From Escherichia coli (lineage in GTDB: Bacteria > Pseudomonadota > Gammaproteobacteria > Enterobacterales > Enterobacteriaceae): DNA of 64,000 nt. The stretch lies in assembly GCF_009931435.1 (NCBI RefSeq), contig NZ_CP043414.1. One strand, given 5' to 3'. Shown here piece after piece: positions 24,660-64,000 of this stretch. The number at the start of each line of letters is the position of its first letter. Within the stretch, counting starts at the first letter, position 1. The position numbers were made by a program, and so were the translations under genes. Under the pieces are notes generated by a model. That model was given only the letters and a program-made list of their open reading frames with translations. It did no database searches and had not been told where the DNA came from.

Positions 24660-24669
24660 ACAAGACGTT

Positions 24670-24740
24670 TATCGTCGGATGCGCGCCCATCGTATTCGTA
24701 GGCCGGATAAGACGCGGCAAGCGTCGTATCCGGCAACGTG
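24670..24740. repeat. REP element(s)
   Basis: GTAGGCCGGATAAGACGCGGCAAGCGTCGTATCCGGCAACG-type palindromic unit in the convergent hda/yfgD gap. Confidence 0.7.
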
Positions 24741-36498: not shown

Positions 36499-37938
36499 TT
36501 ACTGCAACCAGGTCGCGGCGAATACGCTGGAAATCAGCGACATCACAATCAGTACAATCAACACCAGGCGCATTGATCCTGGCAGCGGTGCGGCATCGGC
36601 GACGGCTTCGCTCGGTTTGCCAGGCACGACGCGACCAAACCAGCGAATAAACCAGGCGAAACTGGCGACCGATTCAATCATCAGCAGAATCATGGCGGGC
36701 AGCAGGATCCAGTACTCCACTGACAACGAAAAACCGGCAGCAAACAGTGGGAATTTACTGAAGAAGCCGTTGAACGGCGGCACGCCAGTAATCGCCAGCG
36801 CGGCCACGCAGAAACCCACGCCTGGCAACGGCAGGGTGTGCAATACGCCACGCAGACGCGGCAACAAGCGCGTGCCGCAGCTGTAACTCAGCGCACCTGC
36901 TACAAGGAAAAACAGGCTTTTAGCGAACGCGTGGTTGACGATGTAGGCGATGCTGCCCTCCAGTGCCAGCCGCGAGCCGAAGATGGAGAGCGACAAGCCG
37001 AAGAACATCCAGCCAAGTTGAGTGATGGTCGACCAGGCCAGCAACCGCTTCATATCCTGCTGCGGCAAATACATCAGAAAGCCGTAAAGAATGGTGACCA
37101 GTGCCATGACCATGCCAACGCCGCCAATCACATGCGGGATATTGCCGCCGTCGATAATGGCGCGGGCAAAAATGTAAACGCCCACTTTCACCATCGATGC
37201 GGCGTGGAGATAGGCGCTGATCGGTGTTGGCGCTTCCATTGCATCCGGTAGCCACGCTTGCATCGGTAGCTGGGCCGATTTTCCCCACGCGGCAAACAGG
37301 ATGCCGCCATAAACCAGATAACGTGCGTCGCCGTGTAACTCGCTCATCGCGCTAAGCGCAAACGTTCCGGTCTGCAAAAACAGCGTGGCGGCGGCAAGAT
37401 ACAACCCCAGCGAACCGATATGAGTGATAAGTAACGCTTTTAGTGCTGAACGTTGCGCTTTATCGCTCTGGTAATAACTGATCAATGCCCAGGAGCAGCC
37501 GCCCGTAATTTCAAAAAACAATAACTGACCGAGCAGCGTCGAGGAGAGTACCAGTCCCGCCATCGCGCCGATAAAAACCAGCAAAAATGCGTAATAACGA
37601 TTCGTGCCGTTATGCGGGTGTTCGCGATTTTTATCCGTCAGATAACCCGTGGAGTAGATCGTGACCAGCAAACCGAGGAACACCACCACAAACAGAATCA
37701 GCGTACTCACGCGATCAATGACCAGGCCAAACAACGCCACATCCCCCACGTTGACCAACGTCAACGTGACGGCAACTTTATCGGCCTGATAAAACGCGGA
37801 GATCAGCGACAACATGCACAGCGTGGTCAGCGCGGCGAACAAAATCCCCCATTCGGCGGCCCGACGTTGTGGCGAAAACGAAACGACCAGTGCGCCGATA
37901 AAAGGCAGCAATAACGTCGTCAGAGCAAGATTTTCCAT
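36499..37938 (-). CDS. hyfD: Hydrogenase-4 membrane subunit D (antiporter-like)
   Basis: 479 aa. Confidence 0.9.
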   Translation of the reverse strand: MENLALTTLLLPFIGALVVSFSPQRRAAEWGILFAALTTLCMLSLISAFYQADKVAVTLTLVNVGDVALFGLVIDRVSTLILFVVVFLGLLVTIYSTGYLTDKNREHPHNGTNRYYAFLLVFIGAMAGLVLSSTLLGQLLFFEITGGCSWALISYYQSDKAQRSALKALLITHIGSLGLYLAAATLFLQTGTFALSAMSELHGDARYLVYGGILFAAWGKSAQLPMQAWLPDAMEAPTPISAYLHAASMVKVGVYIFARAIIDGGNIPHVIGGVGMVMALVTILYGFLMYLPQQDMKRLLAWSTITQLGWMFFGLSLSIFGSRLALEGSIAYIVNHAFAKSLFFLVAGALSYSCGTRLLPRLRGVLHTLPLPGVGFCVAALAITGVPPFNGFFSKFPLFAAGFSLSVEYWILLPAMILLMIESVASFAWFIRWFGRVVPGKPSEAVADAAPLPGSMRLVLIVLIVMSLISSVFAATWLQ

Positions 37939-49687: not shown

Positions 49688-49767
49688 GTAGGCCTGATAA
49701 GACGCGTGAGCGTCGCATCAGGCATCGTTCACCATTGCCGGATGCGGCATTAACGCCTTATCCGGCC
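49688..49767. repeat. REP/BIME cluster
   Basis: GGCCTGATAAGACGCGTGAGCGTCGCATCAGGC ... GCCGGATGCGGCATTAACGCCTTATCCGGCC palindromic units between convergent ypfH and ypfN. Confidence 0.7.
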
Positions 49768-59959: not shown

Positions 59960-61003
59960 ATGCGCTATCGCATTTTCCTTCTCTTTTTTTTCGCTTTGTT
60001 GCCGACGTCTTTGGTGTGGGCGGCACCAGCGCAACGGGCATTTTCCGACTGGCAGGTCACCTGTAATAATCAAAATTTCTGTGTGGCGCGCAATACGGGC
60101 AATCATAATGGACTGGTGATGACCCTGAGCCGCAGCGCCGGGGCGCATACCGATGCCGTTTTACGTATTGAGCGCGGCGGGTTGAAGTCGCCGGGTGCGT
60201 CGGAAGGGGAGATAGCGCCACGGCTGCTGTTAGATGGCGAGCCGTTGGCGTTGAGTGGTAACACGTGGCGGATTTCACCATGGTTATTAGTAACCGATGA
60301 TACGACAACCATCACCGCGTTTTTGCAGATGATTCAGGAAGGGAAAGCGATCACCTTACGCGACGGCGATCAGACCATTTCACTGAGTGGCTTAAAAGCA
60401 GCGTTGTTGTTTATTGATGCCCAGCAAAAGCGCCTCGGCAGTGAAACCGCGTGGATCAAGAAAGGGGACGAACCGCCGCTCAGCGTACCGCCAGCGCCTG
60501 CGCTAAAAGAGGTCGCCGTAGTGAACCCGACGCCGACCCCGCTTTCTCGTGAAGAACGTAACGATTTGCTGGATTACGGTAACTGGCGGATGAATGGTCT
60601 GCGCTGTTCGCTTGATCCGTTGCGTCGTGAAGTGAATGTGACTGCGCTGACCGACGATAAAGCGTTGATGATGATTAGCTGTGAAGCAGGCGCGTATAAC
60701 ACCATTGATCTTGCGTGGATTGTGTCGCGTAAAAAGCCACTGGCCTCGCGCCCGGTACGGTTGCGTTTACCGTTCAACAACGGTCAGGAGACCAATGAAC
60801 TCGAACTGATGAACGCAACATTCGATGAAAAATCGCGTGAACTGGTGACCTTAGCGAAAGGGCGAGGATTAAGCGATTGTGGCATTCAGGCGCGCTGGCG
60901 CTTTGACGGTCAGCGTTTTCGCCTGGTGCGTTACGCTGCAGAACCTACCTGCGATAACTGGCATGGACCAGACGCCTGGCCCACGTTGTGGATCACCCGT
61001 TAA
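59960..61003 (+). CDS. ypfG: DUF1176 periplasmic protein YpfG
   Basis: 347 aa with signal peptide. Confidence 0.88.
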   Translation: MRYRIFLLFFFALLPTSLVWAAPAQRAFSDWQVTCNNQNFCVARNTGNHNGLVMTLSRSAGAHTDAVLRIERGGLKSPGASEGEIAPRLLLDGEPLALSGNTWRISPWLLVTDDTTTITAFLQMIQEGKAITLRDGDQTISLSGLKAALLFIDAQQKRLGSETAWIKKGDEPPLSVPPAPALKEVAVVNPTPTPLSREERNDLLDYGNWRMNGLRCSLDPLRREVNVTALTDDKALMMISCEAGAYNTIDLAWIVSRKKPLASRPVRLRLPFNNGQETNELELMNATFDEKSRELVTLAKGRGLSDCGIQARWRFDGQRFRLVRYAAEPTCDNWHGPDAWPTLWITR

Positions 61004-61020
61004 ACATAATAGCGGGAACA

Positions 61021-61145
61021 TGTCAGCCTGATAAGACGCGTCAGGCCGGATAAGACGCGGTAGGCCGGATAAGACGCGTCAGCGTCGCATCCGGCAATCA
61101 GCATCCGGCAATCAGCATCCGGCAATCAGCATCCGGCGATCACCA
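61021..61145. repeat. BIME-like composite: three CGGATAAGACGCG-type REP half-units followed by four tandem copies of a 14 bp unit (CATCCGGCAATCAG)
   Basis: Read directly: GCCTGATAAGACGCG, GCCGGATAAGACGCG, GCCGGATAAGACGCG, then GCATCCGGCAATCA x3 plus a GCATCCGGCGATCA variant, in the convergent ypfG/tktB gap. Confidence 0.8.
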
Positions 61146-63149
61146 TCAGGCACCTTTCACTCCCAGTACCTTATGCGCTTTTGCCACAATATTCTCGGCG
61201 GTAAAGCCAAAGAACGGGAACAGCTTATCCGCAGGAGCAGATTCCCCATAACCCGTCATCCCGACAATTGCCCCTTTCAGACCAACATATTTGTACCAGT
61301 AATCGGCGATGCCTGCTTCCACCGCCACGCGAGCCGCAACGTTAGAAGGCAACACAGACTCCCGATATTCCTCATCCTGGGCGTCGAAAATATCGGTCGA
61401 GGGCAGGGAAACTACGCGTACATTGCGACCTTCTCCCGCTAATTTCTCCGCTGCTTGCAAGGTGATTTCCATCTCTGAACCAGTGGCAATCAAAATAATA
61501 TCCGGCTTGCCGCCGCTGTCTTTCAACACATAACCACCGCGGGCAATCTCTTTTACCTGATCTGGCGTACGTTCCACCTGGGCCAGATTCTGTCTTGAGA
61601 GGATCAGCGCCGTCGGCCCGTTGTGACGCTCGACCGCCAGCTTCCAGCCCACCGCAGCTTCCACCTGATCACACGGTCGCCAGGTGCTGAAATTCGGCGT
61701 TAAGCGCAGACTTGCAAGTTGTTCAACCGCCTGGTGCGTCGGACCATCCTCCCCCAGACCAATTGAGTCGTGGGTATAAACCATAATTTGCCGCGCTTTC
61801 ATCAGTGCCGCCATCCGCGCGGCGTTACGGGCGTATTCAACAAACATCAGGAACGTCGCGGTATACGGCACAAAGCCGCCGTGGTGCGCGATGCCGTTGG
61901 CGATGGCGGTCATGCCAAATTCACGTACCCCGTAGTGAATATAATTCCCCGCTGGATCTTCCTTCAGCGACACAGAACCTTTCCAGATGGTGAGGTTGCT
62001 GGGAGCCAGATCCGCCGAACCGCCAAGCAGTTCAGGCAGCATGGGCCCGTAAGCGTTAAGCGTATTTTGCGAAGCCTTACGAGTAGCGATTTTCGCCGGA
62101 TTCGCCTGCAACTCATTGATATATTTCTGCGTCGTTTTTTCCCAGTCTTTTGGTAAACCACCGCTCATCCGGCGAGTAAACTCTTCTGCCAGTTGCGGAT
62201 GAGCCTTTTTATACGCGGCAAACTTCTCATTCCAGCTCTGCTGTGCTTTTTCGCCTTTTTCGCGAGCGTCCCAGGCGTGATAAATCTCTTTGGGGATCTC
62301 AAATGGCGGATGATGCCAGCCCAGTTTTTGCCGTGCCAATGCCACTTCTTCTTCCCCCAGTGGTGCGCCATGCGCCTCTTCCTTACCTGCTTTATTCGGC
62401 GAACCAAAGCCAATCACCGTACGGCAGATAATCAACGACGGCTTATCTTTTACGCTTTGCGCTTCAAGAATCGCTTCCTTCACCGCCTGCGGATCGTGAC
62501 CGTCGATTTCATGGATCACATGCCAGTGATAGGCTTCAAAACGTTTTGCCGTATCGTCGGTAAACCAGCCTTCGGTTTCACCGTCGATGGAAATACCATT
62601 GTGATCGTAAAAACCAATCAGCTTGCCCAGCCCCAGCGTGCCCGCCAGCGAACAGACTTCGTGAGAAATACCTTCCATCAGGCAGCCGTCGCCCATAAAC
62701 ACATAGGTGAAGTGATCGATAATTTCATGATCCGGCTGGTTAAACTGCGCCGCTAGTGTACGTTCTGCTATCGCCAGTCCGACCGCGTTCGCCAAACCTT
62801 GTCCAAGTGGACCGGTGGTGGTTTCAACACCAGGCGTATAGCCAATCTCCGGGTGACCAGGGGTTTTCGAATGCAACTGACGGAAGTTCTTCAGCTCTTC
62901 CAGCGGCAGGTCGTAACCGGTCAGATGAAGCAAACTGTAGAGCAGCATCGACGCGTGACCGTTGGAGAGAATAAAGCGGTCGCGATCATACCAGGTTGGA
63001 TCGGTGGGGTTATGTTTAAGAAAATCGTTCCACAGCACTTCGGCAATATCAGCCATGCCCATCGGCGCGCCGGGATGACCAGAATTGGCTTTTTGTACCG
63101 CATCCATACTGAGCGCGCGAATCGCATTGGCAAGGTCTTTTCGGGACAT
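61146..63149 (-). CDS. tktB: Transketolase 2
   Basis: 667 aa from the ATG at 63149 ([27 protein letters not shown]...). Confidence 0.96.
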
Positions 63150-63168
63150 ATAACACTCCGTGGCTGGT

Positions 63169-64000
63169 TTATAGTTTGACGGCAAGAAGATCTTCCAGTT
63201 TGCGTTGATCAACGGCGAACAGGCGGATGCCTTCAGAGAGTTTTTCTACCGCCATTGCATCCTGATTGTGCTCCCAACGGAACTCCGCTTCGCTCATCGG
63301 GGCTGGGCGTGGGAACGTCTGAGAAGGCGGGATTAATTTACGCACTACTGGAGAAACTTTTTCCTGCAGCTCCTTCAGCAAATTCGGCGCAATAGTCAGT
63401 CGATCGCAGCCGGTTAAGGCGAGGATTTGTTCGGTGCGACGGAAGCTCGCGCCCATTACAATGGTTTCGTAGTGGTGTTGCTTATAGTAGTCGTAGATAT
63501 TGCGCACTGACTTAACGCCCGGATCTTCTTCCACCACATACGGGTCCATCGGCTTACGCGCCTGATACCAGTCATAAATACGCCCGACAAACGGCGAAAT
63601 CAGAAAAACGCCTGCTTCTGCACAGGCCCGCGCCTGAGCAAAAGAAAACAGTAGCGTCAGGTTGCAGTTAATACCTTCTTTTTCCAGTTCTTCTGCCGCG
63701 CGAATTCCTTCCCAGGTTGAAGCCAGCTTGATCAGAATACGTGATTTCTCAACGCCTTGTTGCTGATACAAGTCCACCAAATGGCGCGCCTTCTCAATAC
63801 TTTTTTCTTTATCAAAAGAGAGGCGTGCATCAACTTCTGTTGACACGCGACCGGGTACGATTTTGAGAATTTCAGTACCGAAATTGACCGCCAGTTTGTC
63901 ACATGCAGCGACCACCTGTTGTTCCTGGGTCTTGCCATTTTTTTTACCCCAGGCGATAGCATCGTCTATTAAATGCTCATATTGTGATAATCCGGCAGCC
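63169..64000 (-). CDS. talA: Transaldolase A, 5'-truncated by window edge
   Basis: Frame stays open to the window end (...[30 protein letters not shown]...); the N-terminus lies beyond 64000. Confidence 0.93.

Follow-up and report, generated by a model that had tools for sequence, protein, structure and literature searches.

The window analyzed here, a 64,000-nucleotide stretch of Escherichia coli DNA taken at its full length, contains a gap between two convergent genes. The gene upstream of the gap is ypfG, which encodes a DUF1176 protein, lies on the plus strand at 59960-61003 and ends, according to the list of open reading frames, with a TAA stop at 61001-61003. The gene downstream of the gap is tktB (transketolase 2), located on the minus strand at 61146-63149 within an open reading frame of 61146-63212, and its TGA stop is at 61146-61148. 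The RefSeq annotation of homologous E. coli loci (ypfG/DUF1176 and tkt/tktB) confirmed both neighbors and gives the tkt gene a length of 2004 nt; the K-12 tktB is b2465. Reading along the plus strand, the gap consists of the ypfG TAA, 22 nt, three 19-bp units, CGTC, four 14-bp units and CCATCAGGCACC. In the RefSeq record of K-12 MG1655, this gap has no repeat annotation, and the features are the tktB and ypfG CDS only.

Direct inspection of the sequence located four head-to-tail 14-bp units, GCATCCGGCRATCA, at 61087-61142. They start at 61087, 61101, 61115 and 61129, and the repeat search resolved them as three perfect units followed by a GATCA variant. Tandem Repeats Finder reported this array at 61087-61152, with a period of 14, 4.7 copies, 92% matches, a score of 111 and the consensus GCATCCGGCAATCA, along with a second array at 61022-61082, with a period of 19, 3.3 copies and a score of 94. 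These are the sole arrays with a score above 50 across the 64-kb window, and the exact 14-mer pattern matches at its four array positions and nowhere else in the window. The 19-bp array resolves into three copies at 61026-61082, which start at 61026, 61045 and 61064.

The relation between the two arrays becomes evident from the complete repetitive extragenic palindrome (REP) that lies where they meet. The palindrome occupies 61064-61095 on the plus strand, with arms GCCGGATAAGACGC (61064-61077) and GCGTCGCATCCGGC (61082-61095), and it was recovered by the inverted-repeat search and by both RNA and DNA folds. The arms are 14 nt long and 86% complementary, they are separated by a 4-nt loop, and two internal mismatches form a bulge. 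To the left of it, L3 to L1 share the general form GCCKGATAAGACGCG followed by TCAG or GTAG. The outermost unit, L3 (61026-61044, plus strand; GCCTGATAAGACGCG plus TCAG), repeats the 5′ arm of the REP together with a 4-5-nt linker, as indicated by the repeat search and by the period of 19. The second unit, L2 (61045-61063, plus strand; GCCGGATAAGACGCG plus GTAG), was seen in the sequence and in the repeat search, and it ends in the GTAG (61060-61063) located directly before the complete REP. To the right, R1-R4 (61087-61142, plus strand) each consist of the base of the 3′ arm of the REP, GCATCCGGC, and a 5-nt linker, which is AATCA in R1-R3 and GATCA in R4; L1 and R1 together make up the complete REP. 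The sequence GCATCCGGC is the complement of GCCGGAT..GC and, because the 14-bp unit is the REP 3′ arm plus a linker, the two arrays are the two halves of one hairpin. The locus is a single REP (GTAG plus the bulged palindrome, 61060-61095), each arm of which has been amplified outward as direct repeats.

The 14-bp array is followed at 61143-61156 (plus strand) by a degenerate fifth unit that resembles a REP arm, CCATCAGGCACCTT, which was recognized from the extension of the Tandem Repeats Finder array to 61152 and as the fourth 28-nt repeat window, with 75% identity. This unit, CCATCAGGCACC in the gap, overlaps the tktB stop; its complement reads GGT GCC TGA TGG, the end of the tktB coding sequence with its stop. 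The tktB end GCCTGATG is likewise present in Escherichia and Citrobacter relatives. The nearest GCCGGAUGC unit lies 8 nt from the tktB stop, inside the tktB 3′ UTR.

An E. coli REP is defined by a GTAG tetranucleotide and a bulged palindrome (PMC8266576). At this locus, an imperfect palindrome of about 30-35 nt carries a bulge (arms 61064-61077 and 61082-61095), and GTAG is directly 5′ of it (61060-61063, just before 61064). The element is extragenic, between the ypfG and tktB stops, and dispersed, as the arm motif has ten matches at four loci in the 64-kb window against 0.83 expected. In addition, the Rfam model naRNA4 (RF02564) matches both strands with 39.2 and 28.6 bits, both below the gathering score of 59.5. 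These observations agree with the first-pass annotation, made from the sequence alone, which had described three REP half-units followed by four head-to-tail 14-bp units (three perfect and one variant) between ypfG and tktB. It had not recorded that the 14-bp unit represents the other, complementary arm of the REP, that the 19-bp array is variable as well, or that about one-fifth of the genomes carry another repeat at this site. The other REP sites in the window are at 24669-24734, 37784-37797 and 49692-49766, and none of them has arm-only tandem arrays; the site near 49.7 kb is a REP pair, with arms on the two strands.

The copy number of both units was then followed across 5,426 complete E. 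coli genomes, a heavily clonal collection in which counts are not independent events. A 451-nt query covering the locus matched 5,425 of the 5,426 genomes. Alleles are denoted here by the number of 19-bp units and the number of 14-bp units, in this order. The 14-bp unit ranged from 2 to 7 copies and the 19-bp unit from 1 to 3, and 11 alleles were read directly from representative loci, namely (1,2), (1,3), (2,2), (2,3), (2,4), (2,5), (2,6), (2,7), (3,2), (3,3) and (3,4). The commonest form is (2,2), found in K-12 and O157 and, judging from the 80-90% identity band of the 451-nt query, in about 3,128 genomes. The (1,2) allele occurs in several lineages and is degenerate in ST131/B2, while (3,4) is the allele of the window and, independently, of strain DAM. 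Strain 8GC carries (2,7). The exact window allele was absent among the 5,426 genomes, the best match being 96.5% identical and one 14-bp unit shorter, and the combination (3,4) on the haplotype of the window was not found among them. The tandem repeat had been expected to differ in copy number between strains, and counting copies across E. coli genomes gave differing numbers, not a single number in all strains.

Longer arrays occur in a minority of the genomes. At least three 14-bp units were found in 198 of the 5,426 genomes by using an exact 41-nt probe that needs three units. By BLAST with a 41-nt left anchor, at least four units were present in 101 genomes, at least five in 70, at least six in 6 and seven in 1, these counts being the reach of the alignment from the anchor, with the sequence checked for five, six and seven units. 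Expressed per copy number, about 97 genomes have three units, 31 have four, 64 have five, 5 have six and 1 has seven. The distribution is not monotonic, which could reflect clonal sampling or selection.

The flanks of the alleles were compared as well. The (2,3), (2,4), (3,4), (2,5), (2,6) and (2,7) alleles have 0 differences across 270 nt of flanks, a pattern that points to recurrent change of these six alleles on the same background. On the haplotype of the window, (3,2), (3,3) and (3,4) differ by 0-1 in the flanks. The third left unit arose at least twice and from different sources, since the window carries GCCTGAT...TCAG and strain DAM has duplicated ACCGGATAAGACGCTGTAG. Both arrays are polymorphic in E. 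coli, by single-unit steps on otherwise identical haplotypes.

Assemblers can collapse or expand short tandem repeats, and differences of this type may raise the suspicion of an assembly or sequencing artefact. However, a typical read is longer than the longest array, of about 100 bp, the alleles differ by whole, perfect units of 14 or 19 bp, and they recur in independent assemblies (five units in 64 genomes, six units in 5, and (3,3) in 11). The shortness of the arrays and this recurrence make an artefact very unlikely, to the point that its probability is close to negligible. The ypfG-tktB spot is a real hypervariable site, and an unremarkable one.

As for the mechanism, the explanation that we favor, with good though not complete confidence, combines three elements: one REP whose arms were amplified outward, changes in size by slipped-strand mispairing, and a function of the element as a stem-loop at the 3′ end of the two convergent transcripts. 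From the pattern of the alleles, units would be gained and lost by slipped-strand mispairing during replication between the perfect short direct repeats, and the adjacent stable hairpin probably aids slippage by pausing the polymerase. Slippage is the standard RecA-independent route for repeats of such short length. Recombination by RecA is disfavored because the total array is less than 100 bp, too short for an efficient RecA route. On the evidence of the sequences, replication slippage is the most likely mechanism.

A different proposal assigns the arm arrays, or their resizing, to the REP-associated transposase TnpAREP/RayT, which would cut single-stranded REP DNA between C and T by the hairpin and rejoin it. 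The E. coli TnpAREP catalyzes strand transfer and cleaves at a CT on either side, 5′ or 3′, of a REP that bears GTAG (PMC8266576), and Nunvar et al. considered slippage or recombination alone an unlikely source of the length differences of BIMEs (PMC2817692). Moreover, the left units of the K-12-type lineage all fit the form T-GTAG-RCCGGATAAGACGC, bounded by a C and T junction. The phase in which tandem units are written is arbitrary, though, so these boundaries do not discriminate between the two models, and the left-unit junctions in the lineage of the window lack CT. The origin by RayT is less likely for the 14-bp array, the more variable of the two, because the enzyme cuts at CT, a dinucleotide missing from the REP strand of the 14-bp unit. 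In addition, gain or loss of one unit at a time in a perfect repeat is the change expected under slippage. For these reasons, the involvement of the transposase appears improbable, and slippage is retained as the preferred route.

Prediction of the folding offers a view of what the element may do once transcribed. RNA folds of both strands gave the nested helices L1:R1, L2:R2 and L3:R3, with z-scores of -3.3 and -4.2, and the core REP helix had a pairing probability of 1.0 in every allele folded. In the fold of single-stranded DNA, the core REP helix alone was robust, and the minimum-energy structure had a frequency of 0.003, which implies many alternative registers. No intrinsic-terminator-like site was found in 60800-61400. 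REPs are reported to stabilize the upstream mRNA and to attenuate transcription (PMC12306157, PMC2817692). This established role, together with the lack of an intrinsic terminator at the locus and the presence of a bidirectional terminator at the same place in other genera, indicates that the element likely serves as a 3′ hairpin, forming and protecting the ends of both convergent mRNAs. As the 3′ stem-loop of the ypfG and tktB mRNAs, it would act as a barrier to 3′ exonucleases and attenuate transcription. The extra arms would be mostly neutral by-products, which may lengthen the hairpin or change its register without being required for it.

Two further features emerged from the same region. 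On the tktB mRNA strand, a helix is predicted between GAUGGUG, over the tktB stop, and CGCCAUU or CGCUAUUAU, beside the ypfG stop; this helix closes the whole gap (window about 61004-61016 with 61140-61148) in every REP allele folded, and it may be due to chance. A weak promoter-like match occurs on the minus strand at 61034-61006 (TTATCA, 17 nt, TATTAT; 9/12), in the outermost left unit and directed into the ypfG 3′ end. The match requires the ACATAATAG of the haplotype of the window and, as one such match was found against 0.4 expected, it is probably due to chance.

The proximity of the array to the tktB stop raises the question of whether the number of units has a regulatory meaning. The distance in nucleotides from the stop to the first paired base was dropped as a measure, because a weak outer helix closes the gap in every allele, and it was replaced by partition-function pairing probabilities after trimming. 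The stop-proximal unit starts 8-9 nt past the tktB stop in all alleles. Its pairing with a left arm has a predicted probability of 0.83-0.85 in (2,2), 0.59 in (2,3), 0.30 in the (3,4) allele of the window, and 0-0.03 in (2,4) to (2,7), (1,2), (1,3) and (3,2).

On this basis, copy number could be conceived as a selected tuning device, in which the balance of the arms decides whether a stable helix forms within about 15 nt of the tktB stop and, in turn, sets ribosome stalling, the output of TktB or the stability of its mRNA. REPs within 15 nt of a stop codon are cited as lowering translation (Liang et al. 2015, as referred to in PMC12306157), and the stop-proximal unit, 8-9 nt past the stop, falls from strong predicted pairing in (2,2) to nearly none in other alleles. 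This argument is one of thermodynamic prediction. The balance between left and right units is not kept, with up to seven right units beside two left ones, and about one-fifth of the genomes have another repeat in place of the REP with no visible consequence. Selected tuning is improbable. A related model would join slippage and tuning in a rheostat similar to a contingency locus, where the gain or loss of a unit would re-pair the arms so that the helix starts either 9 nt or at least 23 nt past the tktB stop, switching stalling, mRNA protection and the level of TktB; we regard it as a speculative model with little likelihood. If the link to tktB translation were true, it would represent a case in which a metabolic enzyme is adjusted heritably and reversibly by way of the 3′ UTR.

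The GCCGGAUGC units of the tktB 3′ UTR might also be read as an array of putative protein-binding sites, for CsrA through its GGA motif, for gyrase or for Pol I. GGAUG does occur in each unit on the tktB mRNA strand, with a spacing of 14 nt, and binding of gyrase, Pol I and IHF to REPs and BIMEs has been reported (PMC2817692). Nevertheless, GGAUG is simply part of every REP arm and the copy number is not conserved, which leaves a binding array highly improbable.

The REP is not the only occupant of this gap. In about one-fifth of E. coli genomes an unrelated GC-rich dispersed repeat (...CCCCTCGCCCCTCTGGGGAGAGGGTTAGGGTGAGGGG...) takes its place, and the last unit, GCATCCGGCGATCACCATCA, is kept. 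This alternative repeat was seen in E. coli WB61, E. coli elppa9 and Escherichia sp. E1V33. The family to which it belongs is dispersed, E. coli genomes having it at a median of 16 places, and 1,253 records contain copies with 95% or more identity to the one at ypfG-tktB; systematic sampling gave 6 of 39 genomes with this occupant of the gap. The alternative repeat appears to resemble the intergenic repeat known as Box C.

Information on the history of the site was obtained from the ypfG loci of 80 species, among which arm-only arrays at the ypfG-tktB gap were found in E. coli only. Intergenic DNA is missing altogether in many Citrobacter and other genera, where the tails of ypfG and tktB overlap by 11 nt (...TGGATCACGCGTTAAGCACCTTATG...; TCACGCGTTAA) and the TktB protein finishes in KVLNA before its stop; this 11-nt overlap looks like the empty site. 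The E. coli TktB tail is GVKGA before the stop, unlike the KVLNA of Citrobacter and related genera. In E. coli, moreover, the heptamer GATCACC flanks the insert on either side, and the end next to tktB has GCACCTT in two copies. The flanking GATCACC, the doubled GCACCTT and the differing tail of TktB suggest an old insertion that would have duplicated the overlapped gene ends in E. coli.

Other lineages have different elements at this junction: different REPs, true REP pairs, a 54-bp whole-REP array, or terminators made of a hairpin and a T-run. True iREP+REP pairs are present at the site in three relatives, including E. coli SCPM-O-B-8794. In Atlantibacter, Leclercia and Phytobacter, the same gap has a classic hairpin followed by a T-run. 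The gap of Enterobacter sp. MGH 24 holds a 54-bp tandem array (locus positions 2259-2460, 3.7 copies, Tandem Repeats Finder score 314), whose unit contains a whole Enterobacter-type REP and represents the more usual amplification of REPs as whole units. In E. coli SCPM-O-B-8794, Citrobacter youngae and Citrobacter sp., a whole REP begins exactly at the last tktB sense codon and stop (GCC TGA TG...), which places the tktB stop inside the hairpin arm in these three loci. The idea that a REP supplied the tktB stop codon is weakened by the insert-free species, which already end tktB with GCG/GCC TGA.

Metagenomes were also scanned for three copies of GCATCCGGC followed by spacers of 3-8 nt and, among the 120 matches listed, all were (GGCATCC)n or similar and none was E. 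coli-like. This heptamer microsatellite is common in environmental metagenomes, and several contigs share the flank CACCCCTTGACAT...GATTTCGTC before the array. In one contig, the (GGCATCC)n array runs on into (TGGTCAC)n, a continuation similar in kind to the short tandem heptamer repeats of cyanobacteria. These heptamer arrays have no relation to the ypfG-tktB element.

The variability of the locus has some practical implications. With at least 11 length alleles in E. coli, it is a small marker that can be sized by PCR and that could help separate closely related isolates; conversely, alignment and variant callers will give spurious indels at this place. The locus shows that a REP can grow by amplification of single arms, besides the addition of whole REP pairs. 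With 2 to 7 perfect 14-bp units by a stable hairpin, it also represents a compact natural substrate on which the question of slippage versus RayT can be addressed.

A search of the accessible literature found no description of this locus or unit, and no relevant paper joining ypfG or tktB with REP. It likewise found no MLVA or VNTR paper naming tktB or ypfG, and the search for the 14-mer found nothing relevant, just one unrelated table. The locus can be compared with several known systems. It resembles naRNA4/REP325 in being REP-derived sequence with a covariance-model match on both strands, but REP325 lies at a different locus and consists of clustered whole REPs, and the match at ypfG-tktB is sub-threshold. 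The likeness to a CRISPR array is limited to short repeated units with partial dyad symmetry. The units here are 14 bp, they abut with a start-to-start spacing equal to the unit length, no unique spacers lie between them, and a leader was not identified either. For lack of spacers the CRISPR reading is rejected, as the first-pass annotation had maintained.

Closer is the resemblance to Z-type REPs and BIMEs, with which the locus shares the GTAG, the bulged 14+14-nt palindrome, the extragenic position between convergent genes, the dispersed arm motif and a length that varies with the strain. BIME/REP regions vary in length among strains, according to Bachellier et al. 1997 as cited in PMC2817692. 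A BIME contains at least two whole REPs in alternating orientation and grows by whole REP-pair units with linkers, whereas here there is a single complete palindrome and the additional units are 19-bp and 14-bp single arms in direct orientation. Accordingly, the canonical BIME reading was rejected, as the locus has just one whole REP and no second one in inverse orientation.

With bacterial VNTR/MLVA loci, it shares perfect short head-to-tail units (periods of 14 and 19, with 4.7 and 3.3 copies in the window), an intergenic site and a copy number that differs among strains in a stepwise manner on identical flanks. It differs from them in that the ypfG-tktB unit is half of a hairpin-forming relic of a mobile element, and in that two complementary arrays flank one hairpin. 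REP/BIME length polymorphism and bacterial VNTRs are both already known, and the locus is a new instance of them.
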